Assembly (NCBI GenBank): GCA_050011565.1
Contig: JBEKIW010000004.1
Location: 60,553 to 124,552, forward strand
Source: Dehalococcoidia bacterium
GTDB lineage: Bacteria; Chloroflexota; Dehalococcoidia; GIF9; UBA5629
DNA length: 64,000 bases
Reading direction: 5' to 3'
Of the stretch, positions 10,731-31,025 are shown in pieces. Position numbers and translations under genes: made by a program. A model generated the notes under the pieces. That model ran no database searches. It worked only from the letters and a program-made list of their open reading frames with translations, and was not told the DNA's origin. Numbering within the stretch: position 1 is the stretch's first letter; each line of letters opens with the position of its first letter.

Positions 10731-12482
10731 GTGAAAACTAAAGTTTTCGCTCCGGTTTTATGCCTGGCTTTGCTTTTGACTATTTGTTTGGTAAGTCCTG
10801 TTCAGGCTGCAGCGGCAATGGCTCCTAATACTGGTGTGGTTGGGGCTACGGTGACCGTATCGGGACTGTTAAAAGGTACTTATTCTATTAAATGGGACAG
10901 CGTGGGAATCAAGAGTGGCAATCTATCTGGAGATGGTAGCGTCAGCTTCACAGTGCCTGATACCGCCGGAGGTAATCATATAGTTACAGTAGACAATCCG
11001 ACTGGTACTCAGGTATTGTCTGATACTTTCTCTGTTCTTCCGTCTCTAAGTGTCAGTCCAGATTCAGGTGTAGTCGGTGATGAAATCACTGTCAGCGGTA
11101 AGGGCTTCTTAGTCAGCGAAAACAACATTGTAGTTTCTTACGATGGCACAAGTGTGAAGACAGGAATCGCGGCCGGTAATACGGGCTCGTGGGAAACAAC
11201 TTTTTCCTTGCCAGCCTCTGCAAAAGGAAGTCGCACGGTCGATGCATCGGGGCAAACTACCAAGGCAAGTGACGTTCCCGATGTCACCGTGACCATAAAT
11301 CCCACCATCAGTATGACTCCTGTATCAGGTAATGTTGGCACCTCAGTTACCGTTAGCGGTACCGGCTTTGGCAAGAGTGAAGAAAGCATTCAAGTTACCT
11401 ACGATGGTGCCAGTGCTAAGACCGGGCTCAGTGCCGACACCAAAGGGTCTTGGAGTGCTGTCTTCAATATTCCTAACTCAACCAAAGGCGGGCATACAAT
11501 AGACGCCTCGGGTGCTTCCACAAATGCCGGTGATGTTCCGGATCTCACTTTTATCGTGTCTTCGGCCGTGACTGTTAAGCCCGCGTCCGGATCTGTAGGT
11601 GATGCTATCACCGTCGCCGGCTGCGGTTTCGGCGGGAGTGAAAGCGGCATTACAATAACGCTTGACGGTAACATTGTCAAGAGCGATATCGTAGCTAATA
11701 GCGAAGGATGCTGGAACTCATCTATGACAGTACCGTCAACTACCGCAGGCAATCATGTGATAGATGCCTATGGCGCTTCAACCACGGCCTCTGAAGTTGC
11801 GGATACTAAGTTGGTTGTTTTGTCCAAGATGACTCTGGAGCCTGCTGAGGGCCATGTGGGCAGTAATATAGCGATAAACGGTGCTGGTTTCGGAGCAGGT
11901 AAAGTGGTGACTCTTAAATATGACAGTACTGCCCTGGTTAACGAATACACCACCGATGATAAAGGCAATTTTCAGGCGAGCCTGGTAGCTCCTAAAAGTC
12001 CTGGCGGTAAGCATAACTTAACTGCTACCGATGCCGGCGGCGCCTCAGCCACAGCAGTTTTCAATATGGAAACAACTCCACCGTCAGTGCCACAAATTGT
12101 GTCGCCGAAGGAAGGCAGCAGGGTAGGCCTTTTCGACCGTATTACTGCTACTTTTGAGTGGGCTGCTGTTTCTGACCCCAGCGGTGTTAGCTACAGCTTG
12201 CAGATATCTACTCAATCTGATTTTGCAACTACGCTGCTGAGTAAGGAAAACCTGGCTGAGCCTAAGTATACTTTGACTGATGAGGAGGCTTTATCGCGAG
12301 GAAAATATTATTGGCGAGTTAAAGCTATAGATGGCGCCAGTAATGATAGCGGCTGGGCTCAGTCCATAGAATTTAAAGCCGGGCTAATGCCTCTATGGGC
12401 ATTCATACTTATCGTCATCGTTGCCGCCCTTTTCTTGACTCGTTTGTTTTTCTTTGTGCGTAATATGAGAAAGGAACACTAG
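10731..12482 (+). CDS. cell-surface protein with tandem Ig-like (IPT/TIG-like) repeats and a C-terminal TM anchor
   Basis: 583 aa. GTG start, signal peptide (LCLALLLTICLVSPVQA). At least five repeats of about 90 aa (consensus P.SG.VG..VTVSG.GF...E..I.VTYDG...KTG..AD..GSW...F.IP.ST.GGH.IDA.GAST.A..V.D). Conserved C-terminal module (YYWRVKAIDGASNDSGW), then a TM helix and a basic tail. Confidence 0.6.
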   Translation: MKTKVFAPVLCLALLLTICLVSPVQAAAAMAPNTGVVGATVTVSGLLKGTYSIKWDSVGIKSGNLSGDGSVSFTVPDTAGGNHIVTVDNPTGTQVLSDTFSVLPSLSVSPDSGVVGDEITVSGKGFLVSENNIVVSYDGTSVKTGIAAGNTGSWETTFSLPASAKGSRTVDASGQTTKASDVPDVTVTINPTISMTPVSGNVGTSVTVSGTGFGKSEESIQVTYDGASAKTGLSADTKGSWSAVFNIPNSTKGGHTIDASGASTNAGDVPDLTFIVSSAVTVKPASGSVGDAITVAGCGFGGSESGITITLDGNIVKSDIVANSEGCWNSSMTVPSTTAGNHVIDAYGASTTASEVADTKLVVLSKMTLEPAEGHVGSNIAINGAGFGAGKVVTLKYDSTALVNEYTTDDKGNFQASLVAPKSPGGKHNLTATDAGGASATAVFNMETTPPSVPQIVSPKEGSRVGLFDRITATFEWAAVSDPSGVSYSLQISTQSDFATTLLSKENLAEPKYTLTDEEALSRGKYYWRVKAIDGASNDSGWAQSIEFKAGLMPLWAFILIVIVAALFLTRLFFFVRNMRKEH

Positions 12483-12575
12483 AGATCGTTTCGCCGGGCA
12501 GGTTTATTTTTCTTAAAGTTGGTTAGTTTTGTCGGCAAAGAATAGGTCTGAGCAGCGTGTAAAAACGAGCGTGCC

Positions 12576-14285
12576 TTAATTCCCGCTAGCTTCACGGATT
12601 AACTTATCAATTTTCAAGGCTATCGCTTCCAATGGCACCAGTTCGGCTTGCTTTTCCTTGCGCCATTTTAGCTCTATACTCTGGCTTTGCAGAGTGCGGG
12701 GGCTTATGGTTAGGCGCAGCGGTATTCCCAGAAGGTCTGCATCGTTGAATTTGACACCCGGGGAATCGTCTCTGTCATCGTAGAGAACTTCAATGTTTCG
12801 ATTCGTCAGGTCCTGATAGACCTTCTCAGCAGCTTCAGCAACATCTGGATTTTCCAGACGGAGAGGGCAAAGGTAAACTTGATAAGGGGCAATGCTTAAG
12901 GGCCAGATAATACCTTTATCATCATGATTCTGCTCTATTGCTGCTGCCAGCAGCCTGCCAAGCCCGATGCCGTACGTACCCATGATAATTGGGCGCGACA
13001 CCCCATTTTGATCAAGAAAGGAGGCGCCAAGTTTCTCACTTAGAAAAGTGCCCAGTTTGAAGACATGGCCGACCTCGATTCCGAGGCTAGAAAAGAGTTT
13101 ACCACTGCATTTTGGGCAACCATCCTCGGGCCGAGCCGTGGAAATATCAGCTATTATGCTGACCTCGAAATCGCGGGGATAGTTAACGTTTTTGAGGTGA
13201 GTGTCCGGTTTATTGGCACCGGCAACGAAATTGGAGCCCAGGGTTATCGAATCATCGGCGATAATCTTGATTCCCTTCAAGCCAACCGGCGAAGCCGCAC
13301 CAGCAACTAACCCGGCTGTACTCACTTCGGCTTCCGTAGCCAGGCGCAATTCGGAGGATTTCAGGAGATTTCGGAGTTTCGTCTCGTTGACTTCCATATC
13401 ACCTCTGATGACCACGAAGACGAGCTCGCCATCAGCAGAATAAAAGACGGCTTTAAGCGTCTGATGTGGTGCCACGCCAACAAAATTAGCTACCTCTTCG
13501 ATGGTTTTTATATTCGGGGTCGATATTTCCTCGACAGGTAAAGCTGTTTTCATCTCGAATTTGGTTTTTTCGCTCTGAGCTTTTTCCAGGTTCGCGGCGT
13601 AGTCGCAGTTTACGCAATGGATGATTCCATCTTCACCGGTCTCGGCAATGAGCATAAACTCATGAGACTCCTTGCCGCCTATAGCGCCGCTGTCAGCTTC
13701 CACTATCGAGGCCGGTAAACCGCAGCGGGAATAAACGTTCTTGTAGGCCTGTATCATTTCTTGATATGTTCTATCTAAATCTGCCTCATCCGTATGGAAA
13801 CTGTAGAGGTCTTTCATAATGAATTCACGGACACGTAACAGCCCGCCTCGAGGTCGAGGTTCATCGCGAAACTTATTTTGGATTTGGTAGAGCAGAAGTG
13901 GTAAGTCGCGATAGCTTTGCACAAAATGTGCAACAAGGTCTGTAATGACCTCTTCATGGGTAGGCCCCAAGACTAATGTGTGTTCTCGTCGGTCGGTAAT
14001 AGTGAACAGTGTTTTGCCGAAAGCAGTATATCTGCCTGATTTCTCCCATAGTTCGAAGGGCTGGAGTGAAGGCAACATCAATTCCTGCCCTCCCGCTTTA
14101 TCCATTTCCTCTCGAATTATTTGCTCAATTTTCTTGAGCACCCTCCAACCCAAAGGCAAATAGGAATAAACACCAGCCGCTACCTGTTGAATCATGCCAG
14201 CCCGGAGTAACAACTGATGACTGGCGGTATCAGCTTCTGACGGTATTTCCTTTAGCGTTTTGCCAAACAAATTGGAAAATCTCAT
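12576..14285 (-). CDS. proS: prolyl-tRNA synthetase (bacterial type with INS editing domain)
   Basis: 569 aa. Class II motifs, inserted editing domain, C-terminal anticodon-binding domain. Confidence 0.9.
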   Translation of the reverse strand: MRFSNLFGKTLKEIPSEADTASHQLLLRAGMIQQVAAGVYSYLPLGWRVLKKIEQIIREEMDKAGGQELMLPSLQPFELWEKSGRYTAFGKTLFTITDRREHTLVLGPTHEEVITDLVAHFVQSYRDLPLLLYQIQNKFRDEPRPRGGLLRVREFIMKDLYSFHTDEADLDRTYQEMIQAYKNVYSRCGLPASIVEADSGAIGGKESHEFMLIAETGEDGIIHCVNCDYAANLEKAQSEKTKFEMKTALPVEEISTPNIKTIEEVANFVGVAPHQTLKAVFYSADGELVFVVIRGDMEVNETKLRNLLKSSELRLATEAEVSTAGLVAGAASPVGLKGIKIIADDSITLGSNFVAGANKPDTHLKNVNYPRDFEVSIIADISTARPEDGCPKCSGKLFSSLGIEVGHVFKLGTFLSEKLGASFLDQNGVSRPIIMGTYGIGLGRLLAAAIEQNHDDKGIIWPLSIAPYQVYLCPLRLENPDVAEAAEKVYQDLTNRNIEVLYDDRDDSPGVKFNDADLLGIPLRLTISPRTLQSQSIELKWRKEKQAELVPLEAIALKIDKLIREASGN

Positions 14286-14343
14286 ATATTTTTATCCCTA
14301 CCAGCGTTAAAGAAAGTTCGCAAGCTACGTCATTACTAACAAG

Positions 14344-14625
14344 TTATTCTATACTAAAGGGAGGATATTTGTCAGTTAGAAGCAGATAATAGCTGCTTAC
14401 CCTCGTATACCAGCGGACATAGCCGGCGACAAAAGTGAAAGCCCATTTGGGATATTTACCGGTAAAGAGAATAGCCCACCAGGAGATGAAGGCGATAACA
14501 CCGGAAGCAATGCCTAGAGCCCAAAGAATAATCGCGTGAGGTATAACCATGAAGGCTCTAAAGAAGGTGGTTAGCCGTGAAAGCTTCTCCGAATAACTTG
14601 TGCCGACGGTTATTGGGTATTCCAC
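14344..14625 (-). CDS. small membrane protein (DUF4389-like)
   Basis: 93 aa with two predicted TM helices. No catalytic motif. Confidence 0.4.
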   Translation of the reverse strand: MEYPITVGTSYSEKLSRLTTFFRAFMVIPHAIILWALGIASGVIAFISWWAILFTGKYPKWAFTFVAGYVRWYTRVSSYYLLLTDKYPPFSIE

Positions 14626-14708
14626 TTTATTCTCCTTTTTGTTTATATATGTTTACAAATGTCTTTATATTCTGTTCGGATGAAGTTTAGCTACAGGAAT
14701 ATATCTGT

Positions 14709-15761
14709 TTAATTTAGTAGGTTTTTAACTTCTGCCATAAGTGCCTTCAAGAAGTCTTTTTCAGCTACGGTGCTGACAACTTTGCCTTTTCTAAAAATGG
14801 CACCTTTGCCTCTGCCGCAGGCAATGCCGACGTCAGCTTCTTTCGCTTCGCCGGGACCATTGACAACGCAGCCCATAACAGCAACCTTGATGGGCTGGCT
14901 TATATCTCTTAAGCTGCTGTCTACGGATTCAGCAAGGCCGATAATATCGACTTCAGCCCGCCCACATGATGGGCAGCTTATCAAAGTAGGGCCGTGTTGG
15001 CGAAGACCAAGAGTTTTCAAAATCTCGTAGGCAGTGTTGACCTCTTCACATGGGTGGGCACTAAGAGAGACCCGTATGGTGTCGCCAATACCTTCATCAA
15101 GTAGTATACCAATACCAACAGCACTGCGGACAGCACCGGCTCTGGGGAGTCCCGCCTCAGTTATGCCCAGGTGCAAAGGATAAGATATTTTGGCGGCTAT
15201 TGCCCTGTAAGCTTCAACAGTAGTAGGCACGTCAAAGGCTTTCAGCGATACTTTGATCAAATCAAAGTCTAAACTTTCCAGCAGCTTGATTTGCTCCAGA
15301 GCTATATTCACCATGTGCTTAGAGGTAGATATGGATGGCTTCGATGCAGGCGGTAGGCTTCCTGCATTGATGCCGATACGAATGGGCACTTGCCTTTGCC
15401 TGGCTGCCTTTACTACTTCGGTAACTTGTTCCGGCTCTCGTATATTACCGGGGTTCAGACGAAGCCCATCGGCACCTGCTCTTAAGGACTCGAGGGCAAG
15501 CCGATAGTCGAAATGTATATCAGCAACAATTGGGATGGATGTTTTCTTCTTGATGTTTGAAATAGCCTGCGCAGCTTCAGAATCCGGTACAGCTACTCTG
15601 GCTATCTCACAGCCACAATCGGCGAGTTCATTAATCTGATTTACAGTAGCTTTTATATCTCTGGTGTCGGTTTTGGCCATTGATTGGACTGCAACAGGAG
15701 CATCACCGCCTATGGTTACGTCTCCAATTCTGATAGGTTTTGATTGCCTGCGTACTATCAA
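14709..15761 (-). CDS. ispG: 4-hydroxy-3-methylbut-2-en-1-yl diphosphate synthase (flavodoxin)
   Basis: 350 aa. TIM-barrel N-domain and C-terminal 4Fe-4S domain with CPSCGR...GCVVNGPGE. MEP pathway. Confidence 0.9.
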   Translation of the reverse strand: MIVRRQSKPIRIGDVTIGGDAPVAVQSMAKTDTRDIKATVNQINELADCGCEIARVAVPDSEAAQAISNIKKKTSIPIVADIHFDYRLALESLRAGADGLRLNPGNIREPEQVTEVVKAARQRQVPIRIGINAGSLPPASKPSISTSKHMVNIALEQIKLLESLDFDLIKVSLKAFDVPTTVEAYRAIAAKISYPLHLGITEAGLPRAGAVRSAVGIGILLDEGIGDTIRVSLSAHPCEEVNTAYEILKTLGLRQHGPTLISCPSCGRAEVDIIGLAESVDSSLRDISQPIKVAVMGCVVNGPGEAKEADVGIACGRGKGAIFRKGKVVSTVAEKDFLKALMAEVKNLLN

Positions 15762-16828
15762 GGTAAAATACTCTCTCCCTGAATAATATGTGTAACATCA
15801 AAGTAGCTTACCACAATAATCAGAAGCATTAGCACCGCGAAGCCTATAAGGTGGACAAGGCCCTCTCTTTTTGGGGATATCCTTTTTCCTCGCCGGACCC
15901 ATTCTAAAGCCACAAAGATTAGTCTGCCCCCATCGAGACCCGGGAAGGGGAAGATGTTAATTATGGCCAGGTTTATACTGATTAGCGCGGCAAATTCCAG
16001 CAGGGGGCTTATGCCGGCTTTAGCAATCTGACCGGTGATTTCGGCAATACCTATCGGTCCGGTTACTTGAGGTGGTGTTCCTCCAATGAACCACCCTACC
16101 ACTTCATTACGGAATAAAACGAGTATTTCCCAGCAATGAACTATACTTGAAGGCACCGCTTTCCAAATAGGGTCCGATTGGCGGACTGTTGTACTGTCTA
16201 CACCGATGATATTGATGCCGGTTGCCCCTTGCCCCTCAGGCGGATTCCATCTTGGCTTCAAACTTAGTTCCTTAGGAGGGAGTTCGTCGCTTTGAAGCAA
16301 AATATTTACCTGTGAGCCTAGGTAAAGCTGGATAAAATAACCAACATCGCTACGATTTTTAATTGTGTGACCGTTTATTGCTAGGATTGTATCTCCCGGC
16401 TCAATTCCAGCCATCTGAGCTGGTGAACCTGGGGCAACTTCTTGTACCTGTACTTTCTCGAGAATCATATTGTGCGGGATCATAAAACTGATAGAAAACA
16501 GTAATATGGGTAGCAAAATATTCATCAACGAGCCGGCACTGAGAACCAGAATTCGTACGGGGATGCTCTTGCTGGCGAGGCTTCCCGGCAGTGTTGGGTC
16601 TTCTTCTCCGACCATCTTGGTAAAGCCACCCAGAGGTATTGCATTTATAGAATACGTTGTCTCCCCTCGCCTGAAGCTGATGATCCTGGGCGGAAAACCT
16701 ATGCCGAATTCCTCCACCTTTACTCGAGCAAGCTTGGCGGTGATGAAATGCCCAAATTCATGGGCGAAGACAAGTAATATTAGTATGCCTATAAAACTGA
16801 CAATTGTAAGTACTATTGTTTCAATCAT
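15758..16828 (-). CDS. rseP: RIP metalloprotease RseP (M50 family)
   Basis: HEFGHF zinc motif at the N-terminus, PDZ domain, multiple TM helices. Overlaps ispG by 4 nt. Confidence 0.8.
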   Translation of the reverse strand: MIETIVLTIVSFIGILILLVFAHEFGHFITAKLARVKVEEFGIGFPPRIISFRRGETTYSINAIPLGGFTKMVGEEDPTLPGSLASKSIPVRILVLSAGSLMNILLPILLFSISFMIPHNMILEKVQVQEVAPGSPAQMAGIEPGDTILAINGHTIKNRSDVGYFIQLYLGSQVNILLQSDELPPKELSLKPRWNPPEGQGATGINIIGVDSTTVRQSDPIWKAVPSSIVHCWEILVLFRNEVVGWFIGGTPPQVTGPIGIAEITGQIAKAGISPLLEFAALISINLAIINIFPFPGLDGGRLIFVALEWVRRGKRISPKREGLVHLIGFAVLMLLIIVVSYFDVTHIIQGESILP

Positions 16829-16832
16829 AAAT

Positions 16833-17960
16833 TTACCTTGCTGCTGACTTCAGCGCCGTGTCTCTTGCCCACTCATCAGCTATTAAAATTTCTTCCAGAG
16901 TAGGGCTATCTATGCTCTGGTGTAAGCTAATGGTCTTGTCTATGATTTCTGCGATTTGGGGGAAAGCGATGCGCTGTTCAAGAAAAAGTTGGATAGCAAT
17001 CTCATCGGCGGCACAAAGTACAGCAGGGTAGGTTCCTCCTTTTTTCCCGGCATCCAATGCTAGTTGTAGGCAGGGAAACATGGCACAGTTTATTGTCTCA
17101 AAGGTCAGCGAATTCAATCGTGCGAGGTTCATGCGAGGCAAATTATCGTTGGCTAGCCGCTCGGGATACGACAAAGCATATTGAATGGCGAAACGCATAT
17201 CGGGGACACTAAGTTGAGCCTTAAGTGAGCCGTCAATAAATTCTACGAGAGAATGAATTATGCTCTGTGGATGAATTACTATTTCGATTTTGTTAAGGGG
17301 TATAGAAAAAAGCCAGCTAGCTTCGATTGTTTCCAGTCCCTTATTCATCAGGGTAGCCGAATCAATAGTAACTTTTTTCCCCATTTTCCATACCGGATGT
17401 TCTAGAGCTTCATCAACTGTAACCTTAGATAATCTTAAAGGTGAATGATGATAGAAAGGCCCTCCCGAAGCGGTGAGGATAAGCTGAGCTACCCCACCTT
17501 TCTCTCCTTGCAGGCATTGGTGTATGGCGCTGTGTTCGCTATCAATAGGCAGGATTTGTGCCTGCCGGAGTTTAGCCTCCTTCATAATAATTTCGCCTGC
17601 CATGACCAGCACTTCTTTATTGGCCAGAGCTATTTTTTTTCCTGACCTTATGGCTGCTAATGTCGGGGTCAGTCCTATTTTACCTGACGTGGCTACGACT
17701 ACCATGTTGACTTCTGGATGAGTGGCAACCTCTTCCATCGAAGAGAATTTGGTGTTGCCCGGAAGATTGAATCTGTGGGGTGAGTATACTAGTTTAGGCT
17801 GAAATTGACTTATTTGATCGCTGAGTAGGCTGGCATTTTTCCCACCGGCTAAACCTATTATCCTGAATTTGTCAGGGAAATCTCTTACTATGTCCAGGAC
17901 TTGCTGACCTATAGAACCTGTTGAGCCTATAACGGCTAGTTTTTTAATAACTTTACTCAT
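16833..17960 (-). CDS. dxr: 1-deoxy-D-xylulose 5-phosphate reductoisomerase
   Basis: 375 aa. N-terminal NADPH motif (LAVIGSTGSIGQQ), DXR catalytic and C-terminal domains. Confidence 0.9.
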   Translation of the reverse strand: MSKVIKKLAVIGSTGSIGQQVLDIVRDFPDKFRIIGLAGGKNASLLSDQISQFQPKLVYSPHRFNLPGNTKFSSMEEVATHPEVNMVVVATSGKIGLTPTLAAIRSGKKIALANKEVLVMAGEIIMKEAKLRQAQILPIDSEHSAIHQCLQGEKGGVAQLILTASGGPFYHHSPLRLSKVTVDEALEHPVWKMGKKVTIDSATLMNKGLETIEASWLFSIPLNKIEIVIHPQSIIHSLVEFIDGSLKAQLSVPDMRFAIQYALSYPERLANDNLPRMNLARLNSLTFETINCAMFPCLQLALDAGKKGGTYPAVLCAADEIAIQLFLEQRIAFPQIAEIIDKTISLHQSIDSPTLEEILIADEWARDTALKSAAR

Positions 17961-18751
17961 AATTTTGCCAGTTCTACGAAATAGTATACTATAACTCCCG
18001 TGAATATGAGACTGTCCACACGATCCAGCACGCCACCGTGTCCCGGTACTAGGTTGCCTGCGTCCTTGACGCCTGTGTTACGCTTAAGCAGTGACTCCAC
18101 TAAATCCCCAAGCTGTGCGAATATGCTGATAATGAAACCCGCAAGGGCTATCTGCCAGTAGCTGAAGGGCAACGTAAAGATTAAGCCGATAGTGAGAGAA
18201 GCCACAATACTGACTAACAGCCCGCCCATAGCTCCTTCCCAGGTTTTTCCGGAGCTTATTGACGGGGCAAGTGGGTGTTTGCCCCAGGCTCTGCCGACAA
18301 AAAAGGCGCTGGTATCATTGGCAAATGTGGTGAACATGGCCAAAAATACTAATTCCCTGCCCGATTCCAAGCCTCTGAGTTGGACCCAGTAGCTGAGCAT
18401 CCAGCCGATATAGAGGATAGCGGCCATCGTCCATACCCAGTTGGTAAAAGCCTGGTCTCTCGGGCGACGAAATAACAGCCAGATCAGGGATATAATTATT
18501 GCTGAGGTAATCAGGAAAGGTAATGTAGCCGGATATGGGCAGTGAGGACTGGCGATTATAAGTAGTACCCAGGCGATACCGAAATAGGTGATTGGCTGCA
18601 CTTTTAACCCGCCTGCCATTCGGTAGAACTCCCAGCTCGCAAGACCAGCCATGGCGGCTATTAAAAGTGTAAACCACGGTTCACCGAACCATATTATGGC
18701 GATCAGGAGTGGTAAGCCGACAAAAGCAGTTAGAATTCTATGCCTGAGCAT
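17957..18751 (-). CDS. cdsA: phosphatidate cytidylyltransferase
   Basis: 264 aa polytopic membrane protein with C-terminal CTP-transferase signature (GHGGVLDRVDSL). Overlaps dxr by 4 nt. Confidence 0.8.
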   Translation of the reverse strand: MLRHRILTAFVGLPLLIAIIWFGEPWFTLLIAAMAGLASWEFYRMAGGLKVQPITYFGIAWVLLIIASPHCPYPATLPFLITSAIIISLIWLLFRRPRDQAFTNWVWTMAAILYIGWMLSYWVQLRGLESGRELVFLAMFTTFANDTSAFFVGRAWGKHPLAPSISSGKTWEGAMGGLLVSIVASLTIGLIFTLPFSYWQIALAGFIISIFAQLGDLVESLLKRNTGVKDAGNLVPGHGGVLDRVDSLIFTGVIVYYFVELAKL

Positions 18752-18889
18752 ATTAATTCTTTGGCTCTGCGTGTCTTAAGTAGAGTTGGCCGCAGCGAGG
18801 GGCGTCAAATGTTGGTAGGGCTTGATTCATTGCATTTAACGTTTAGATTTATTTGCTGAAAAGGTGAGGGCTCGAAAGTTACGGAGTTC

Positions 18890-19447: not shown

Positions 19448-19449
19448 TT

Positions 19450-20692
<1,243 letters not shown>

Positions 20693-20731
20693 GTTTCTCC
20701 TCCTTAATATATGGGTGGTATTATTGCTTTC

Positions 20732-21517: not shown

Positions 21518-21743
21518 ATTGTAACCTCCTAATCATATTAAACAGGTGAAACCAAGTTTTTGCGACTTACATAGGATTTTTGCCAAAGCCGCTCATCAGT
21601 ATAACATAAGGTGATTTCTGAGGCAATTGAACACATGGGACGTTCATTTAAAATTAAGGTGGTCTGATAACCCAAATGAGATGATTCAGTCACCCAGGAC
21701 AATTTAGTAGATATGTCAAAACCTTTCAACGTTAAGGTAAAGA

Positions 21744-21772
21744 CTTAGCCCCTCTAGATAAGAGGGGCTAAG
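21744..21772 (-). terminator. perfect 11-bp inverted-repeat hairpin downstream of an acyl-CoA dehydrogenase gene
   Basis: CTTAGCCCCTC-TAGATAA-GAGGGGCTAAG. Lies just past the stop of the minus-strand gene ending at 21799. The U-tract is weak. Confidence 0.35.
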
Positions 21773-21798
21773 TGAAGTGCCCTTGCAGCGGGAAGCTC

Positions 21799-22932: not shown

Positions 22933-22955
22933 GATTCCTCCTATCGAAACTTAAT

Positions 22956-24140
22956 TTATTTCATCCGGGGTAAGCCCAAGCCGTACCAGGCGATGATATT
23001 CCTTTGTATCTCGTTTGTACCCATGGAGATTATGGTTACGAAACACTCTTGGAATTTTTTCTCCCAGGCTCCGTGCATTGGGGCCCAGCGGGAGTTTTTG
23101 ACCTGACCATACGGGCCTGCGATGTCAGTGGCAACGAAAGCGAAGCGCTCGCCTAGCTCACTATAGAATATCTTTGCTGCTGACGCATCCATCAGTGCCA
23201 TCTCGTTCCTGTTTTGCAAGTCAGCTATTCGATAGGCGATGGCTTTGGCTGCTTCCAGTTCGCAGGCTAGCTGTGCCACCCGGTTGCGTACCAACGGGTC
23301 TTTCGACAGAAGTTTCCCGTTCCGTTTGGTTGTATTACAAAATTCGACCAGCTCTTCTAGTTCGCGGTACATGCCCATGATTTCACCCATTCCAGACCTC
23401 TCGAAGCCGGCTAAGAGATTGACTATAGCCCAGCCTTCGTTTTCCTGGCCCACGATGTTTTTCGCCGGCACATGAACATCATCGAAGTAAACTTCAGCAA
23501 ACGGGGCATCGCCATCAATATAGGGAATGGGTCGTACTGTTACGCCAGGGGTTTTCATATCGAGCAAGAGGAAGGTGATATTGTGGTGTTTGCGAGCTGC
23601 TGGGTCTGTCTTAAATACTCCAAACCCCCAATCAGCCCGATGAGCACCGGTATTCCAGGTCTTCTGGCCATTAATAACGTATTCATCACCCTTTTTTATT
23701 GCGGTGGCTGACAGAGTGGCCAAATCCGAGCCCGCATTTGGTTCGCTCCACAATTCGCACCACATAACCTCTCCTCGTGCAATGGGCGGCAGAAATTCTT
23801 TCTTTATTGGGTCGCTTGCCGCCTGTAGAAGGGTAGGAGCGAGCATTTGGATTCCAAAGATATCGACTCCAGGAATCCCGTGATATCCTCTTGCTTCGGC
23901 GAAGAGGACTTTGTCCATCATGGTGCCACTACCGCCGTATTCAGCGGGCCAGGCTAGACCAAGCCATCCCTTTTTAGCGAATTCCTTGGCGCAGTAAAGG
24001 TGGAATTGCCAGCATTCATCAACCTCAAACACGGCCTCCAATCCGATAAAACTTGCCGGCCTTTTTTTCTCGAGCTCCTTACAGAAATCGAAATACTCCT
24101 TTCTGTGCGCCTTTTCTTCTTGTGTTAGCTCAAAATCCAT
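22956..24140 (-). CDS. acyl-CoA dehydrogenase
   Basis: 394 aa, ACAD fold. Adjacent paralog of the previous gene. Confidence 0.85.
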   Translation of the reverse strand: MDFELTQEEKAHRKEYFDFCKELEKKRPASFIGLEAVFEVDECWQFHLYCAKEFAKKGWLGLAWPAEYGGSGTMMDKVLFAEARGYHGIPGVDIFGIQMLAPTLLQAASDPIKKEFLPPIARGEVMWCELWSEPNAGSDLATLSATAIKKGDEYVINGQKTWNTGAHRADWGFGVFKTDPAARKHHNITFLLLDMKTPGVTVRPIPYIDGDAPFAEVYFDDVHVPAKNIVGQENEGWAIVNLLAGFERSGMGEIMGMYRELEELVEFCNTTKRNGKLLSKDPLVRNRVAQLACELEAAKAIAYRIADLQNRNEMALMDASAAKIFYSELGERFAFVATDIAGPYGQVKNSRWAPMHGAWEKKFQECFVTIISMGTNEIQRNIIAWYGLGLPRMK

Positions 24141-24413
24141 GTGTGCCTCCTTTAAATGTTAAACTCCCTATGAAAGTGCCGCTGACAAGAGTTGATGTCG
24201 ACCATCGACCACTAGTCAATCGCCGCACCTAGGTTTCTAATCCATCTCAATTTGCTGTATCTAGTCTCAATTCCGAAGATTACCGACAATCTTCGTACGG
24301 GCAAATGCACTGATTGAGTCTCGGAAAAACCTTCTAAGCTCAACCCTCAATTACGCCCGTATATTATAATATAGATTTCGTCGTTTGGAAAGTATCTGAT
24401 ATCTCGTACTTAC

Positions 24414-25244
24414 CTAGGTCGACCGGTGATGGATTTCTTCAATTTTGTAATGCAGGATACCGGCCGGTGCCTTTACCTCGACGTTTTGCCCTTTTATACA
24501 TCCGAGCAAGGCTTGACCCATGGGTGAGGCAACTGAGATTTTGCCTTCCATTGCATTAGCTTCACTGATATCAACAAGTGTATAGCGTACCTGTTCTCCT
24601 GAAGCTATATCCCGTAGCACCGCCGTATCACCAAAACTTATTTCTCGGCTACCGGCTTGTTGCTCGTCCACTAAAGCAACCATTTTCAGAGTTGATTCCA
24701 GCTGTTTAATACGCGCCTCTACGTGTCCTTGATGCTCCCTGGCCGCTTCAAGAGGCGCATTTTCGCGGAAATCCTTATCTGAGGCAGCTTTCTTCAGTTC
24801 TTCAGCTATACGCGGGCGACCTTTTTTAAGGCTGTTAAGCTCCGCCTGTAAATCAGTGTAACCTTGATTAGTCAGCAATACCTTCCGGTAGGAGCGCCGT
24901 TTTATAGACGTAGATTTGGGTGGTGTTTTTTTGCTCTTCAGATGGACTGCAAGGTTCTTTTTGGTCATGCCCTGCTTGTGTATGTAAGTAAGAAAGTTTT
25001 TAATTATCCCTAATTTCTCGGCTACTTCAGTCGTTGAAGAGGTGATCTGCTCAGCATAGTTGGCGACTTCCGGAATGGTTAGCCCGATCAGCGGGCGTTT
25101 TTCTCCATACCAACGTACAAATTTGTATACTTCTTGTTGGGCTTTTAGCCTTTCGTCTGAGGATAATGTTAGAAGAAACTGAGTGGCAGCCTCTCCTAGA
25201 CTATAATCAGATAGAGCTGAATCAGGTGTGTTTTTTGAGGCCAT
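24414..25244 (-). CDS. GreA-family transcription elongation factor with an N-terminal extension of about 120 aa
   Basis: C-terminal 150 aa matches GreA (coiled coil DKDFRENAPLEAAREHQ, FKBP-like domain GDTAVLRD...GKISVASPMGQALLG). N-terminal 120 aa unrelated to GreA. Confidence 0.7.
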   Translation of the reverse strand: MASKNTPDSALSDYSLGEAATQFLLTLSSDERLKAQQEVYKFVRWYGEKRPLIGLTIPEVANYAEQITSSTTEVAEKLGIIKNFLTYIHKQGMTKKNLAVHLKSKKTPPKSTSIKRRSYRKVLLTNQGYTDLQAELNSLKKGRPRIAEELKKAASDKDFRENAPLEAAREHQGHVEARIKQLESTLKMVALVDEQQAGSREISFGDTAVLRDIASGEQVRYTLVDISEANAMEGKISVASPMGQALLGCIKGQNVEVKAPAGILHYKIEEIHHRST

Positions 25245-25329
25245 CCCTTTGCTCTAAGACGGCGTTAATAATAGAACATGGAGACGGGCTGTGTCAAATA
25301 TAGCGGGAATTCAGGTTTCTGATACCTCG

Positions 25330-26214
25330 CTATGATGATACTGCGTAGCCTATAAACTTGTAGGCCAGTTTAGCTGCCAGAAAGGCGCAGGAATCGGTGT
25401 AGTCCTTGGGGCACAGTTCCACCAGGTCGAAACCAATGACACGTTTATGACGAGTTACATAACTTAATAAATTCAGGACTTCGTGCCATTGCATTCCGCC
25501 TGGTTCAGGAGTGCCCACTGCCGGCATAACTGAAAGGTCAAAGACGTCTAAATCGATTGATACGTACACGTTGTCGCTTAATGAGGTTGTTATATTCTCA
25601 GGTGGAGCTAAATCTGAGCTTGATGTTGTGATATAGAAGGGATGCATTTTATTTTGGGTTAAAAACTCCCGCTCCTCCAAACTTAAGCTTCGTACTCCAA
25701 CTTGCACGATAGGGCAGAGTTCATGAATACGGCGCATTACGCAGGCATGGCTATATTTGGTTCCTAAATATTCGTCTCTGAGGTCGGCATGTGCATCTAG
25801 CTGCAGCACACAAACATCCTGCATCTTTTCTTTCAGGGCTTGAACCATGCCGAGGCTAAGGGAGTGCTCACCGCCAAACATTACAGGGAATTTCCCTTGT
25901 TTTACCAGTTCACCCGCAATACGATAAACCCGTTCAATCATCTTTTCCGGGCTATTTAACAAGGGTTGGACTGCCGGTAAAGTATGAATTCCGACTTTAT
26001 ATATCTCGCGGTTGAGTTCAATATCATAAAGTTCTAAATATTGCGAAGCGTTGATAATAGCCTGCGGCCCTTCGCGCGTGCCGCTATGCCATTCGGTAGT
26101 GCTGTCATAGGGCACTGGTAAAATCACCACTCTGGCAGTTTGCACGTCGGAGTAAGGGGATGACAATCCGGCGAAGTTTTGCCCGGGGGAGAGCAGGTCC
26201 TCTATGTTTTCCAT
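25330..26214 (-). CDS. speB: agmatinase (arginase/ureohydrolase family)
   Basis: 294 aa. Mn-binding motifs (GGEHS, DAHADL, SIDLDVFD). Confidence 0.8.
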   Translation of the reverse strand: MENIEDLLSPGQNFAGLSSPYSDVQTARVVILPVPYDSTTEWHSGTREGPQAIINASQYLELYDIELNREIYKVGIHTLPAVQPLLNSPEKMIERVYRIAGELVKQGKFPVMFGGEHSLSLGMVQALKEKMQDVCVLQLDAHADLRDEYLGTKYSHACVMRRIHELCPIVQVGVRSLSLEEREFLTQNKMHPFYITTSSSDLAPPENITTSLSDNVYVSIDLDVFDLSVMPAVGTPEPGGMQWHEVLNLLSYVTRHKRVIGFDLVELCPKDYTDSCAFLAAKLAYKFIGYAVSS

Positions 26215-26217
26215 ATC

Positions 26218-26613
26218 TCAAACTGAGCGGAGTTGAGCCGTATCCGCAACTTCGGGGAGTTCAGCCATCTTCCAATCGCGGTTTATAAGGCGACTTGACA
26301 GTCTAGTTAGTTGAAATTTGTCCTTGAAGTCCTTCACGACCTGCTCGGCATTAAAATTCTTGCAGGAGAAAACGTCTATATTTATGTAACAACGTTCGAC
26401 GAAAGTATGAATGCTGACATGGCTTTCGGCGATAAAAACGAATCCGGATATTCCCCAGTCTTCAGGCTTCGAGCCGATGTATTTAAAAACGTGCGGAGAT
26501 GAAATCTTTGTCATGTCAATCCGGGCAGGATATGAGTCCAACAGTTGATAGATAAATTGCTCATCCTGCATTAATCTTGGATTATCTCCATAGCCATCAA
26601 TAGTCAGATGCAT
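26218..26613 (-). CDS. speH: S-adenosylmethionine decarboxylase proenzyme (small pyruvoyl-dependent type)
   Basis: 131 aa. Self-cleavage motif FIAESHVSIHTFVE (the E-S site gives the pyruvoyl group). Confidence 0.85.
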   Translation of the reverse strand: MHLTIDGYGDNPRLMQDEQFIYQLLDSYPARIDMTKISSPHVFKYIGSKPEDWGISGFVFIAESHVSIHTFVERCYINIDVFSCKNFNAEQVVKDFKDKFQLTRLSSRLINRDWKMAELPEVADTAQLRSV

Positions 26614-26621
26614 GGTTCCCC

Positions 26622-27845
26622 CTAAAGCAAAATTCTCCTTAGCTCGAAAAGTGCTGCCGTGACCGCTCTTTGCTTTATTTGTAGGCGGTTACCAGGGTAG
26701 TTTTTAGCAAAACTCTGCTTACTCCGCCCGTCATCAAGGCTAACAAAGATGGTACCGATTGACTGCCCCTCAATTTCAGCGGGCCCCATTACCCCGGTGA
26801 GACCGACACCGATAGATGTCCTGAGCGTTTCTCTAGCCGTTGTTGCCATAGCCTCGCATGTTTCCATGCTTACAGTTCCGTATCGAGATATACACTGCGG
26901 GTCAAGGCCGAAAGCCGCTCTCGACGCTTCGCTATAAGCAACCAGTCCTCCCGCAAAATATTTAGAGCTGCCGGGAACATTGGTGATAACATTGGCTAAA
27001 GAACCACCAGTATAAGACTCCATAGTGGCAAGGGTTAGCTTTTTGGACGACAGTAAATTTCCGACGATGCTCTCCAGTGTTTCAGGGTCTGTTCCCCATA
27101 TATAATCATTTAAAATCCCCCTGATGTCACTTTCTCGTTGGTTAATAAGCTTTTGCGCTTTGTCTTCGGTCTGTGCTTTAGCCGTGATGCGCAGGTAAAT
27201 GCCATCAATTTTAGCATACGTAGCCAATGTCGGATTTGTAGAGGGAAGAAACGGGCTTGCTCTCTCGTCTACCTCTGCTTCGGTCAGGCCGAAGGTCTTA
27301 AGGGTTTTGGAAACAATTACAGCGCCGGATGACCTCTGTTGCAACCTGGGCACTATTTCTTTCGTCCACATCAATTCCATCTCACGTGGTGGGCCAGGCA
27401 TGGTAATAATTATTCGATTATCGTTTTCCACCCACCAGCCCGGTGCGGTGCCCCTGGGGTTCGGGACAATTTCTGCTGAGGGAATTACTGTAGCCTGCTT
27501 GATGTTGCTTGGTGGCATTTCTCTCTTGAAATATCTGAATAGCTCTTCGAATTTCTGGACGAGAGCGTAGTCAACCGTAAGTTTTTCTCCGAGGAACTCA
27601 GCTATTGCTTCTCGAGTGATATCATCTTGGGTCGGTCCTAAACCGCCGGTAGTGATAATGATATCGGATCTTTGCCATCCTTGCTTTAAGGTTTCGATTA
27701 GCCTGCCCTGGTTGTCGCCAACCATTGATATAAAGTTAAGGTCAAGGCCAAGCAAAGGTAGCTGGCTCGCGAGATAAGCGGAATTTGTATCGATGATGTC
27801 CCCCAAAAGAAGCTCGGTGCCAATCGAGATTATTTCTGCCTTCAT
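26622..27845 (-). CDS. cinA: CinA-family protein (competence/damage-inducible; MoCF-binding domain plus NMN deamidase domain)
   Basis: 407 aa. N-terminal MoaB/MogA-like domain (MKAEIISIGTELLLG), C-terminal CinA domain. Confidence 0.85.
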   Translation of the reverse strand: MKAEIISIGTELLLGDIIDTNSAYLASQLPLLGLDLNFISMVGDNQGRLIETLKQGWQRSDIIITTGGLGPTQDDITREAIAEFLGEKLTVDYALVQKFEELFRYFKREMPPSNIKQATVIPSAEIVPNPRGTAPGWWVENDNRIIITMPGPPREMELMWTKEIVPRLQQRSSGAVIVSKTLKTFGLTEAEVDERASPFLPSTNPTLATYAKIDGIYLRITAKAQTEDKAQKLINQRESDIRGILNDYIWGTDPETLESIVGNLLSSKKLTLATMESYTGGSLANVITNVPGSSKYFAGGLVAYSEASRAAFGLDPQCISRYGTVSMETCEAMATTARETLRTSIGVGLTGVMGPAEIEGQSIGTIFVSLDDGRSKQSFAKNYPGNRLQIKQRAVTAALFELRRILL

Positions 27846-27865
27846 CGTAAGTCGTGCCCGTTACG

Positions 27866-29161
27866 TCAACATCTAATCGTAGAAATTCCCAAGTATTTCT
27901 CTACCAATGCCATGGCGCAGTACTTGCCGCACATACTACAGGCTGGCCCGCCAGCGCTATATTTACTATGAATTGTTTTAACTTTTTCAGGGTCTAAAGA
28001 CAGCTCGGCCTGCAATTCCCAATCAAGGTTCTTCCTGGCCATTGACATTTTCCTATCCCATTCACTGGCTCGTTTTGTGCCTCTAACGATGTCGGCGGCG
28101 TGGGCGGCAATGCGCGAAGCTATTACACCGATTTTTACATCTTCAACATCCGGTAGTGAAAGATGTTCTGTGGGAGTGACATAACATAGAAAATCAGCTC
28201 CCGAAGCGGCAGCAATGGCACCGCCGATAGCTGCTGTAATGTGGTCATAGCCGGCACCGATGTCTGTTACCAGCGGGCCGAGAACATAAAACGGAGCGCC
28301 GTGACAGAGGCTCTTCTCTAGCTGAACATTAGCGGCAATTTGATTTAACGGTAGGTGTCCTGGTCCCTCAACCATTGTTTGCACCCCGGCTTCTCTACCA
28401 CGATCTACGAGTTCTCCGAGAGTAATCAGCTCTTCAACTTGAGCCCGGTCGGTGGCATCAGCTATGCTGCCGGGACGCATGCCATCACCCAGACTTAGAG
28501 TTACGTCAAATTTACGGGCTATATCTAACAGACGGTCAAAGTATTCATACAGCGGGTTCTCGCGGTCGTTGTATAATATCCAACCGATAAGAAATGCGCC
28601 TCCACGGGAGACAACATCGGTTAATCTTTTCTGATGTTTTAATCGGGCTATGGCGGCTCGAGTGACGCCGCAATGTACAGTCATAAAGTCGACGCCATCC
28701 TTTGCCTGCTGCTCAATAACAGAGAAGATTTGGTCTACAGACATGTTTACAATTGCACCATATCTTTCAATGGCTTCAATCCCTGTTTGGTATATCGGCA
28801 CAGTACCTACAGGTAAAGTACTGGCAGCTATGATAGATTGGCGGATCGCTGAGATGTCGCCCCCGGTACTCAGATCCATAACCGCATCAGCACCAAAGCG
28901 TGTAGCGGTAAGGAGCTTTTCCAGCTCGCTGTCCATGTTGCCATACTCTGACGAAGTGCCGATGTTGGCATTGACCTTAACCGAAAGCTCTACACCAATG
29001 CCACGTGAAACCAGGCTAGTATGATTAATGTTAGACGGGATTACTATTTTACCTTCAGCCACGTATTGCCCGACAATCTCAGGGCTTACGCTTTCCTGTT
29101 GCGCTACGTGTTTCACTTGGGGTGATAGTATACCCCGGTTTGCCAACTCCAATTGACCCAT
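27866..29161 (-). CDS. thiC: phosphomethylpyrimidine synthase
   Basis: 431 aa. Conserved ThiC core (HCGVT, C-terminal CSMCGKYCA cluster motif). Confidence 0.9.
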
Positions 29162-29174
29162 GTTATCTCCTAAA

Positions 29175-29222
29175 GAAAAAAACCAAGAGCTTTAGTAACC
29201 ACTACTAAACCCTTGGTTTGAT
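29175..29222 (-). terminator. intrinsic terminator forming the expression platform of the thiC TPP riboswitch
   Basis: Minus strand reads AACCAAGGGTTTAGTAGTGGTTACTAAAGCTCTTGGTTTTTTTC (imperfect stem with U7 tract), then RBS TAGGAGA and the thiC ATG. Confidence 0.6.
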
Positions 29223-29227
29223 TTACC

Positions 29228-29330
29228 GCTTCCCTACGCTTGTATTACCAAGGTCAGGTTCTGACGGTTCTCCGCAATAACGGAGTCTCAGCCTGGTTTA
29301 TTTTTCTGGGCACCCCTAGCGGTTAGCTAA
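29228..29330 (-). promoter_or_regulatory. TPP (THI-box) riboswitch aptamer
   Basis: Minus strand reads ...CTAGGGGTGCCCAG...GGCTGAGAC...CGTCAGAACCTGACCTTGGTAATACAAGCGTAGGGAA. Contains the invariant THI-box elements (GGGGUGCCC, CUGAGA, ACCUGAUCUGGAUAAUGCCAGCGUAGGGAA-like 3' half). Lies directly 5' of thiC. Confidence 0.8.
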
Positions 29331-29399
29331 AACCAATATTAAATATATCATATAACGACGCTGAGAAACAAGTAAATTTTTAGCGAAACCATTGCTTGA

Positions 29400-31025
29400 C
29401 TATCTTCTGGCTTTATATCGCCGCCAGGTTATTGTCGCCAAGCCCACTATCCCAGCGATAAACACTAGTGGGATAACCAGAGACAAAATAAGGACTCGAC
29501 TTGACATGGGTATTACTTCAAATTCGTTAGCATCTGACCACAACCCTTCATTGCCGATGTCATCCACAGCCATTACTCGCCAGGTATAGCTGCCTATAGT
29601 TACGATGTCATCTCTGGATAAACTGTACTCTGAATCTACCAGCCCTTTCTTTAAGACAGTCGGTGATGAAAAGTCATTACCATTGGCAATCTCCAAGTTG
29701 TACGTTGTTTTACCCTGGACTTTAATATCCGACCAATCAAATGTAACATCAGGCGCCACAAGTCCTCGTTTGTCAGCGCTTTGAAACGAGATGATTCCCA
29801 TCAGTTGCTTGGCTGTCCCAAGAAATACATCACCAACTGAATCAAAAACCGCTAATTTAGCTCCCTGCGCGGGGGATACTAGCGATGGTGCAGTAGGTGT
29901 GACTTTGTCGATTATGAAAATAGTTTCTGCCGAACCGCCTGCTCCTCCTGTAGCTTTCACTTTGTTTTCTTTGATAGTACTTTGAGGGGCTTCAAAACTG
30001 GTACTAAAGCTACCTTTATCGTCGGCAATGGCATTTGTACTGAGGTTAGTTCCTTCAAAGCTCAAGCTAATAGCTTCATCCTTGTTGAAGCCTGTTCCGT
30101 TAACAATGACCTTTGTCCCCTTGTTTCCCGAAGGCGGCTCTAATTGGATATTTGGAACCACGTTAAAATCCATATCAGGGATGATTCCTTTAGGTGTGAA
30201 ATCGCTACCAAAGATGCCAAGCAGGTGAGGTCCTTTAGTGGTGGGTGGAATATTCAAAGTAGCATTCAAGACTCCATCTGTGCCCGCTATAAGATTGACC
30301 AGGAATATTTGATTATCCCATGTAAAGGTGATCCCGTCCTCACTGGTTCGGAAGCCATATCCTTCTACTGTAATCTCCGTTCCTACCGGACCGGAGTTCG
30401 GTTGTATCTTAACAAATGGTGCAACAATGAATTTGTGCTCGCCGATTTCAGAGGCATCAGTCGAACTGCTGAAAGCACTGATATAGTATTCACCCTTAGT
30501 CGGCTCGGGGGCGTCAAAATTGACGCTCCACATACCGAGATGGTTGGCAGTAGCAGAAAACGGGAGGGCGGTTTTATTCCACGTTACTTTAATATCTTTT
30601 TCGAAGCAGACGAAGCCGTTACCAGTAACCGTAAGCGATGTATATGGCCGGCCAATACGCGGAAATATTTCTATTCCGGGCAATACGGTGAATGTAGCTG
30701 ATGCGGTGCTGCCGGTCCAATTGCTGTCGTCTGTAATTCTAATGGTGTAGCTGCCTCGACAGACTGTTGGTACCTGCAAATCGAATGCTAACTCACCAGT
30801 GTCAGATATAGGTACCTTGCTCAATATAATTTGTTTATCCCAGTAGATGGTAGCCAATCGGCCGGAGAATCCATCACCGCTGATATGCACGGATGTATTG
30901 ACGGTGCCTGACGTAGGCGCTATCGTAATATTAGAAGCATGAGTGGGTACAGGGGAGGCCAGAAATATGAGCGGGAGAACAATAATTATAGCTAAGAACG
31001 TAAGTAAAACTTTAGAATGTGCCAA
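29400..31025 (-). CDS. cell-surface protein with tandem Ig-like repeats and a C-terminal TM anchor (paralog of 10731..12482)
   Basis: 541 aa. Signal peptide, repeated GxGF...T(F/W)D...G domains, C-terminal module YTWRVMAVDDIGNEGLW matching YYWRVKAIDGASNDSGW of the paralog, terminal TM helix and RRYKARR tail. Confidence 0.6.
   Translation of the reverse strand: MAHSKVLLTFLAIIIVLPLIFLASPVPTHASNITIAPTSGTVNTSVHISGDGFSGRLATIYWDKQIILSKVPISDTGELAFDLQVPTVCRGSYTIRITDDSNWTGSTASATFTVLPGIEIFPRIGRPYTSLTVTGNGFVCFEKDIKVTWNKTALPFSATANHLGMWSVNFDAPEPTKGEYYISAFSSSTDASEIGEHKFIVAPFVKIQPNSGPVGTEITVEGYGFRTSEDGITFTWDNQIFLVNLIAGTDGVLNATLNIPPTTKGPHLLGIFGSDFTPKGIIPDMDFNVVPNIQLEPPSGNKGTKVIVNGTGFNKDEAISLSFEGTNLSTNAIADDKGSFSTSFEAPQSTIKENKVKATGGAGGSAETIFIIDKVTPTAPSLVSPAQGAKLAVFDSVGDVFLGTAKQLMGIISFQSADKRGLVAPDVTFDWSDIKVQGKTTYNLEIANGNDFSSPTVLKKGLVDSEYSLSRDDIVTIGSYTWRVMAVDDIGNEGLWSDANEFEVIPMSSRVLILSLVIPLVFIAGIVGLATITWRRYKARR

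Follow-up and report, generated by a model that had tools for sequence, protein, structure and literature searches.

The 64,000-nucleotide stretch of Dehalococcoidia bacterium DNA analysed here (contig JBEKIW010000004.1; the whole stretch is called the window) carries two genes, which we call P1 and P2, that encode large surface proteins built from tandem immunoglobulin-like (Ig-like) domains. P1 starts with GTG and encodes 583 amino acids (aa); P2, on the opposite strand, starts with TTG and encodes 541. Each is 100% identical over its full length to a database protein, P1 to P0001, 'IPT/TIG domain-containing protein [Dehalococcoidia bacterium]', and P2 to P0279, 'hypothetical protein ABSB38_08125 [Dehalococcoidia bacterium]'. 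BLASTP aligns the two over 494 aa at 29% identity (E 1e-78), far beyond chance, which bears out the paralogy claimed in an earlier note on this DNA; a second, register-shifted alignment (E 1e-44) arises because of internal repeats. A tblastn search over the 64-kb window found no third copy of the family. Judged by their sequences, P1 and P2 are true paralogues that go back to an ancient duplication.

Signal peptide, tandem TIG repeats, conserved C-terminal module, transmembrane helix and basic tail are found in both proteins, as the earlier note had described. Structure prediction of repeats and module, which the note had proposed and which we ran on P1, gives all-beta domains: the AlphaFold2 (AF2) model, built on a 64-sequence family alignment (mean predicted local distance difference test score, pLDDT, 90.2), has six of them in succession (residues 28-103, 104-191, 192-279, 280-365, 366-446 and 447-552), followed by a helix (555-581). 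Pfam IPT/TIG (PF01833; gathering score 20.9) scores 68.5 bits over five stretches of P1 and 47.3 bits over three stretches of P2. P1 has six Ig-like domains, five TIG repeats and the C-terminal module, and because P2 aligns by BLASTP in register with P1 repeats 2-5, it consists of four TIG domains plus the module, or five Ig-like domains. The earlier count of 'five or more Ig-like repeats' ahead of the module thus stands for P1 and falls for P2. The NCBIfam repeat model CoaZ_rpt_PGGG (choice-of-anchor Z repeat, NF058597; cut-off 30) matches three stretches of P2 at 33.2 bits and leaves P1 unmatched, and GxPGS_dom (NCBIfam) is matched by both proteins below its cut-off. Repeats within P1 are 24-51% identical to one another, which points to old duplications rather than a recently expanding array.

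Both ectodomains are acidic, with an isoelectric point of 4.6, and have two cysteines each. In P1 these two, the only ones of its ectodomain, are C298 (11622-11624, + strand) and C327 (11709-11711, + strand), both in TIG repeat 4, which reads GCGFG...EGCW against GTGFG...KGSW; the other repeats carry Thr, Lys or Ala and Ser at the two positions. The repeat-4 pattern is kept in the P1 close clade, and a disulfide specific to this repeat, C298-C327, is possible.

The motif quoted for the C-terminal module is present in both proteins (YYWRVKAIDGASNDSGW in P1, YTWRVMAVDDIGNEGLW in P2), and its core (Y526, W528, D534, N538 and W542 in P1 numbering) is invariant in 64 family members. The length first given, about 100 aa, suits P1 (~105 aa) and not P2, whose module reaches ~130 aa because of a subfamily-conserved insertion of ~28 aa. 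The P1 type lacks this insertion, which has some hydrophobic sequence and might touch the membrane or a partner.

Where the earlier note could not assign the module, we find that it matches a PF25788 / Big_13-type FN3-like domain, a very common extracellular repeat. PF25788 (Ig_Rha78A_N; gathering score 27.4) scores 24.5 bits on residues 475-553 of P1 (E 3.4e-5) and 13.9 bits on the P2 module (E 0.066), in both cases below the gathering score. Many P1 orthologues have precomputed matches to PF25788 and/or PF19077 (Big_13), those to PF25788 including many at 74-83% identity, and because so many pass PF25788, the P1 module reads as a near-threshold member rather than a different domain. The same fold and the signature W...Y...YxWRV.A.D..GN.S.WS are shared by Ig_Rha78A_N of GH78 alpha-L-rhamnosidases and by Big_13, DUF4962 N-terminal and SusE-type domains. 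What differs is position: the Rha78A-type domain opens an enzyme or is repeated in a long tandem array, whereas in P1 and P2 it is the last extracellular domain before the membrane helix.

A separate AF2 model of the P1 module and helix (pLDDT 88.6) was compared with the PDB by Foldseek, which returned FN3 domains first (7y8h, 3mpc, 2rb8; target template-modelling scores, TM-scores, 0.74-0.78) and further matches to FN3-like N-terminal domains of Atu3025 alginate lyase, exoHep and lambda gpJ. The module is a seven-strand beta-sandwich that superposes on solved FN3 domains, and it is also a reusable extracellular repeat. When we searched for it as a domain elsewhere, as had been suggested, an exhaustive HMMER search with the 111-residue module against 1.84 billion representative proteins matched 13,559 at E<=1e-3, of which 677 reached E<=1e-30, and the giant proteins that matched best contain as many as 42 stretches of it each. 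Six top-matching proteins have strong Big_13 and Ig_Rha78A_N scores, and most of them also match DUF4962, SusE or fn3. A phmmer search of the module against PDB sequences gave no match even at E<=10, and a word-index search restricted to the module retrieved nothing beyond 8 short fragments from this family, which are uninformative on distribution. We conclude that the C-terminal module belongs with the common, ordinary FN3-like domains of the Ig_Rha78A_N / Big_13 type, which serve as extracellular spacers, and that it is not an anchoring device; the helix, not the module, is the anchor. The earlier note had held that the repeats would be standard adhesin repeats if the module turned out to be a known anchoring domain. 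The domain is a spacer, but the 'standard repeats' reading is nevertheless largely right.

Hydropathy identifies only two hydrophobic segments in each protein (1-32 and 545-579 in P1, 1-31 and 502-535 in P2), and P1 and P2 are, on predicted cleavage and orientation, single-pass type I (N-out, C-in) surface-exposed membrane proteins. The P1 tail, RNMRKEH, belongs to a region that varies in the family (42% identity within the close clade). Lipoprotein anchoring was ruled out for want of a conserved lipobox: the LTIC of P1 has Ile at -1 and a Cys that is not kept in orthologues, and the P2 signal peptide is without Cys. True lipoboxes occur elsewhere in the window (LPAC in the gene starting at 36203, LVAC in that at 38196). 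Sortase-type anchoring was likewise rejected, as no curated sorting-signal model matches P1 or P2; the NCBIfam models match neither the full proteins (E<=1) nor their isolated last 36 and 40 residues (E<=10), and no LPXTG, PEP or PGF motif is seen in either sequence.

A scan for relatives, with one genome per species, gave a best 80 loci (L003-L082), all in Dehalococcoidia/Chloroflexota metagenome-assembled genomes (MAGs) except one bin labelled Thermodesulfobacteriota; as sampled here, the family appears almost confined to Dehalococcoidia. The closest species-level relatives of the window are labelled Dehalococcoidales or Dehalococcoidia. P1-type orthologues form a tight group, most of those listed being 581-584 aa long with identity down to ~60%, and P2-type proteins form a second one, in which 63 of the 120 listed have exactly 541 aa; P2-type ends share IPMS(N/S)QV-helix-WRRYKxRR. 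Conservation per domain is even along the P1 rod, at 66-75% in the close clade, with no variable tip. Nine contig sizes are common to the P1-type and P2-type match lists (49,711; 68,547; 74,058; 81,789; 82,645; 177,521; 317,721; 586,297 and 1,759,528 nt), one of them the complete 1.76-Mb chromosome CP070642.1, and from these shared sizes the two genes appear often to lie on the same contigs, which implies that the duplication is old and that both copies were retained. The neighbourhoods of other subfamily members (P0100, P0103, P0111) are unrelated and uninformative. In the literature we found no paper joining Dehalococcoid* with 'TIG domain', nor Rha78A with FN3.

P1 follows thrS-infC-rpmI-rplT-pheS-pheT, with convergent proS beyond it, and in all eight close-clade loci its place is likewise after pheT. 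P2 lies between tRNA-Asp and a thiamine pyrophosphate (TPP) riboswitch with thiC, an arrangement that recurs in L037. The genes between P1 and P2 are housekeeping genes (rpsB, tsf, pyrH, frr, cdsA, dxr, rseP, ispG, greA, speB, speD, cinA and acyl-CoA dehydrogenases), and no linked secretion, sortase, glycosylation or regulatory gene was found at either paralogue. An operon with informative neighbours was rejected on these flanks, pheT and convergent proS for P1 and tRNA-Asp and the thiC riboswitch for P2. The TPP riboswitch (Rfam RF00059, 69 bits; 29214-29327, - strand) stands directly downstream of P2 and before the ThiC_Rad_SAM gene (27866-29161, - strand), and with this regulatory RNA between them P2 and thiC are not co-regulated as one unit.

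A spacer of 107 nt precedes P1. A consensus scan called no full sigma-70 site at its TATAAT box, and the GTG start, like the box and the Shine-Dalgarno-like element, is kept in orthologues; the conserved box, strong Shine-Dalgarno and start codon together suggest that P1 is probably driven by its own promoter. No intrinsic terminator was found on the coding strand after P1 or P2. The 15-mer ATTTTGATTTGATTT has two exact copies in the window, one before each gene (10670-10684, + strand, and 31086-31100, - strand), 46 nt before the P1 start and 61 nt before the P2 start, and it overlaps the -35-like TTGATT in P2. We do not claim it as the site of a common regulator: 2 of 100 shuffles gave at least two matches at <=2 mismatches, P1 orthologues do not preserve it in this form, and it stands 4 nt from the -10 box in P1 but 14 nt from it in P2.

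Table 1. Features of P1 and P2 in window coordinates, and loci of the CetZ-linked relatives
Feature	Position	Strand	Basis
P1 -10-like TATAAT box	10689..10694	+	sequence; box and flanks kept in 7 orthologous upstream regions (pheT-linked)
P1 Shine-Dalgarno-like GGAAAGGGG, 9 nt before GTG	10713..10721	+	sequence; kept as GGAAGGGGGG in orthologues
P1 gene: signal peptide, TIG x5, FN3-like domain, transmembrane helix, basic tail	10731..12482	+	open reading frame, translation, 100% match to P0001, AF2
P1 signal peptide, aa 1-27 (KTK, hydrophobic core, VQA/AA at cleavage)	10731..10811	+	hydropathy 1-32; helix 6-19; low pLDDT 20-26; A27 nearly invariant
P1 TIG repeat 1, aa 28-103, most divergent	10812..11039	+	AF2 strands 29-102; 24-32% identity to other repeats
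P1 TIG repeat 2, aa 104-191	11040..11303	+	Pfam TIG; AF2 strands 105-189; 51% identical to repeat 3
P1 TIG repeat 3, aa 192-279	11304..11567	+	best Pfam TIG stretch 194-263; AF2 model
P1 TIG repeat 4, aa 280-365	11568..11825	+	AF2 strands 278-364; carries C298, C327
P1 TIG repeat 5, aa 366-446	11826..12068	+	AF2 strands 366-446; weak Big_6 and CarboxypepD_reg matches at 383-442
P1 membrane-proximal FN3-like domain, aa 447-552 (the 'C-terminal module')	12069..12386	+	
P1 transmembrane helix, aa 553-575	12387..12455	+	Kyte-Doolittle peak 2.83 over 545-579; AF2 helix 555-581
P1 short basic cytoplasmic tail, aa 576-583, part of RLFFFVRNMRKEH, and stop	12456..12482	+	translation
P2 gene: signal peptide, TIG x4, FN3-like domain with insertion, transmembrane helix, basic tail	29400..31025	-	open reading frame, translation, P0279, TIG match
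P2 basic cytoplasmic tail RRYKARR and stop	29400..29423	-	translation; WRR(Y)K(A/T)RR pattern kept in orthologues
P2 linker (PMSSR) and transmembrane helix, aa 506-534	29424..29510	-	Kyte-Doolittle peak 2.91 over 502-535; IPMS(N/S)QV and hydrophobic stretch kept in orthologues
P2 FN3-like domain, aa 373-505	29511..29909	-	alignment to P1 module with 28-residue gap; PF25788 E 0.066
P2 insertion, ~28 aa, roughly aa 393-420, FDSVGDVFLGTAKQL... (FDSVGDVFLGTAKQLxGI...)	29844-29927	-	kept in 13 aligned P2 orthologues
P2 TIG repeats 1-4, aa 31-116, 117-204, 205-291, 292-372	29910..30935	-	alignment to P1 repeats 2-5; Pfam TIG, 3 stretches
P2 signal peptide, aa 1-30 (...PVPTHA/SN at cleavage)	30936..31025	-	hydropathy 1-31; translation
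P2 Shine-Dalgarno-like GAGGAAGGG, 6 nt before TTG	31032..31040	-	sequence
P2 promoter-like TTGATT, 15 nt, TATAAA, including 15-mer ATTTTGATTTGATTT	31066..31100	-	sequence; TTGATT-15 nt-TATAAG before the L037 P2 orthologue
CetZ-linked loci	L012-L019, L021-L025, L027-L029, L034-L036, L040, L042-L047, L052, L057, L060, L062, L068; plus L084, L085		
Example pair, family gene	L085:7001-8791		
Example pair, CetZ-like gene	L085:8973-10154		

Sediments, aquifers, peat and oceans all harbour abundant Dehalococcoidia; most orders of the class have lost peptidoglycan, and to our knowledge how their envelope is built and shaped is poorly known. Dehalococcoidales are monoderm and do not synthesize peptidoglycan, with a single loss placed at the ancestor of the order and the marine radiation (PMC10284905), and transmembrane helices are a recognised mode of anchoring for surface layers (S-layers) (bioRxiv 10.1101/2024.05.28.596244). 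From the order-level labels of the relatives and this literature, the host is probably a wall-less monoderm. In a wall-less cell without an outer membrane, surface proteins can be rooted in the membrane only, which makes a structural coat or spacer role likely for P1 and P2. We tentatively favour, and would not put it more strongly, a reading of P1 and P2 as constitutive type I membrane-anchored surface-coat, spacer or S-layer-supporting stalk proteins. As predicted from sequence and model, a Sec signal peptide exports the chain; the ectodomain forms an acidic rod of four or five TIG beta-sandwiches with one FN3-like sandwich next to the membrane; and one C-terminal helix with a short basic tail holds the protein in the cytoplasmic membrane, leaving 7-13 residues inside the cell. 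Such membrane-rooted Ig rods, each paralogue with its own fixed geometry, could build or support a proteinaceous envelope in the archaeal style, like the S-layer proteins and stalks that archaea anchor in their membrane.

Archaeal S-layer proteins with Ig domains and a membrane anchor are the closest functional analogues. Haloferax volcanii csg (PDB 7PTP) resembles P1 and P2 in its signal peptide, its ~six Ig-like sandwiches, its acidic ectodomain and its C-terminal attachment to the cytoplasmic membrane of a cell without peptidoglycan, and it turns up among the Foldseek matches of the full P1 model, but there is no sequence relationship and the likeness is architectural only. Anchoring of csg is via a PGF-CTERM signal and lipid, whereas no PGF-CTERM signal was detected in P1 or P2.

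Several observations weigh against a coat or stalk role. Codon usage gives no sign of abundance: by the CAI-like index (after the codon adaptation index) P1 reaches 0.748 and P2 0.735, where rpsB, tsf and frr stand at 0.80-0.83, which puts both in the middle-to-lower part of the window genes, though codon bias is weak in this genome and the whole span of the window (0.71-0.83) is too narrow to tell expression levels apart. Unlike many archaeal S-layer glycoproteins, P1 and P2 are not significantly enriched in N-glycosylation sequons (5 against 5.6 expected in P1, 7 against 4.5+-1.8 in P2). Foldseek comparison of the full P1 model with the PDB returned generic multi-Ig chains (DSCAM, alpha-2-macroglobulins, cytokine receptors) at TM-scores of 0.12-0.21 that point to no function, and the match to the Haloferax S-layer protein among them (7ptp_A, E 2.1e-12, TM-score 0.16) is generic too. 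Chains of TIG and FN3 domains are equally typical of adhesins, and the premise of a wall-less host itself leans on order-level labels of relatives and on literature. Finally, the modelled S-layer protein of Dehalococcoides mccartyi is a beta-propeller and not an Ig rod (bioRxiv 10.1101/2024.05.28.596244), and the coat may be made by another protein. The propeller comes from the same class and likewise has to be held on a monoderm cell that lacks a wall, but its fold is entirely different from that of the P1 and P2 rods and no homology was detected. If this MAG has a propeller homologue, P1 and P2 would more likely be accessory or supporting than the lattice itself.

A serious though less likely rival is that P1 and P2 are adhesins or ligand-binding receptors, whereby the rod would present a binding surface for particles, polysaccharides or partner cells and the ligands would differ between the paralogues. 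Chains of TIG, Big and FN3 domains are what bacterial adhesins usually consist of; Ca_tandemer, Big_6, GxPGS and CoaZ repeat models are matched weakly; the solved structures closest to the module are N-terminal parts of enzymes that degrade glycans (exoHep, Atu3025, GH78 rhamnosidases); and the family occurs in many unrelated gene contexts, with several copies per genome. Multi-Ig adhesins, 'choice-of-anchor Z' and 'PGS family' proteins likewise set tandem TIG-type sandwiches behind a signal peptide. Against this, the rods have neither a distinct tip nor a lectin domain, all domains being plain beta-sandwiches, and conservation is uniform along them, with no hypervariable stretch. Their repeats are few, fixed in number and old, length is strictly kept within each orthologue group, the genes sit among housekeeping genes and not in islands, and a plain C-terminal helix takes the place of the LPXTG, PEP-CTERM, type IX secretion system (T9SS) or outer-membrane barrel anchors of adhesins. 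Fixed length, even conservation, two retained paralogues and housekeeping neighbours argue for a constitutive structural role over a fast-evolving adhesin, and a variable adhesin role is less likely than a structural coat or spacer role.

A further reading comes from a sister subfamily outside the window. Of the 80 loci from species representatives, 33 have a family member, ~31-46% identical to P1, directly upstream of a same-strand gene for a 393-aa protein of the tubulin superfamily, with a gap of 37-350 nt (~1.1 kb in 2 of the 33) and with rho directly upstream in 14. The tubulin-like gene matches Pfam Tubulin and CetZ_C, its best solved relatives are 4b46 (E 1.3e-40), 4b45 and 3zid, which we take to be archaeal CetZ structures, and against NCBIfam FtsZ it scores 58.5 bits, far below the cut-off of 295.2. 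Species whose CetZ-like proteins share 52-93% identity have all retained the pair. CetZ-linked family proteins end in a conserved ...WK or ...YD (...RFVSVSRRDEWK in L085, ...IIRDRVGLYD in L047), and these aromatic-plus-charged termini suggest a putative docking peptide for a cytoplasmic partner. CetZ-like proteins in Dehalococcoidia were noted earlier (PMC9871819); we found no mention in the literature of a surface-protein gene adjoining the Dehalococcoidia CetZ-like gene.

On this basis the family might be the outer half of a link across the membrane to a cytoskeleton of CetZ-like tubulin, acting in shape or division of wall-less cells, with P1 and P2 as paralogues in the same system. The recurrence of the gene pair in different species, the CetZ relationship and the conserved termini all speak for such a link. 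For P1 and P2 we nonetheless consider it improbable: the 64-kb window holds no CetZ-like gene, P1 (...RNMRKEH) and P2 (...RRYKARR) are without WK or YD termini and neighbour pheT and thiC instead, their cytoplasmic tails have only 7-13 residues, and adjacency alone is no proof of interaction. The CetZ pairing is a matter of the family and has no direct bearing on P1 and P2.

Very unlikely, finally, is a C-terminal helix that serves as a cleavable sorting signal (for a sortase, exosortase, archaeosortase or rhombosortase) from which the mature protein is moved to lipid or an envelope polymer, since the three-part layout of short conserved stretch (G-L-M-P in P1, I-P-M-S in P2), hydrophobic helix and basic cluster, the nearly invariant Met directly before the helix and the P2 repeats' passing of the NCBIfam 'choice-of-anchor' cut-off are set against the lack of any NCBIfam C-terminal sorting model match even on isolated tails, a helix plus tail of 30-40 aa that exceeds usual sorting signals, a pre-helix motif that differs among subfamilies, and no sortase-like gene adjoining P1 or P2.

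Elsewhere in the window, a branched-chain-type solute-binding lipoprotein (36203-38092, + strand; Peripla_BP_6, LPAC) has a Pro-rich linker with PAAPPAGEQ three times and an extra C-terminal domain of ~150 aa without a Pfam match. Its neighbour, a small lipoprotein (38196-38879, + strand; LVAC), has a comparable Pro-rich repeat and a paralogue of the ~150-aa domain (YTN.EYGFS.QYP.DWV.RPE...). A cluster related to extracellular proteolysis (50469-54580) comprises a peptidase M28 (50469-51719, - strand), a trypsin-like protease (52025-52801, + strand), a small protein with a TM2 domain and a serpin of 429 aa (53291-54580, - strand), a type of protein seldom found in bacteria.

TIG and FN3-like domains on a membrane helix are a standard build, and the parts of P1 and P2 hold no surprise: the two proteins are ordinary in their domains, with P1 already named an IPT/TIG protein in databases, and uncharacterised in their role. 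As a conserved, length-invariant pair of Ig rods, one of them beside core translation genes, they are reasonable candidates for an envelope scaffold and targets for metaproteomics and cryo-electron tomography. The more interesting lead lies outside the window, in the sister subfamily that is paired with a CetZ-like tubulin gene in many species. We find it tempting to speculate, while giving the idea little weight for now, that in wall-less Dehalococcoidia the family forms the extracellular half, rooted in the membrane, of a system for envelope and shape in the archaeal style, in which a CetZ-coupled subfamily would carry the docking peptide and P1 and P2 would make up the remaining scaffold. 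If true, bacteria would possess a counterpart to the S-layer-cytoskeleton link of archaea.

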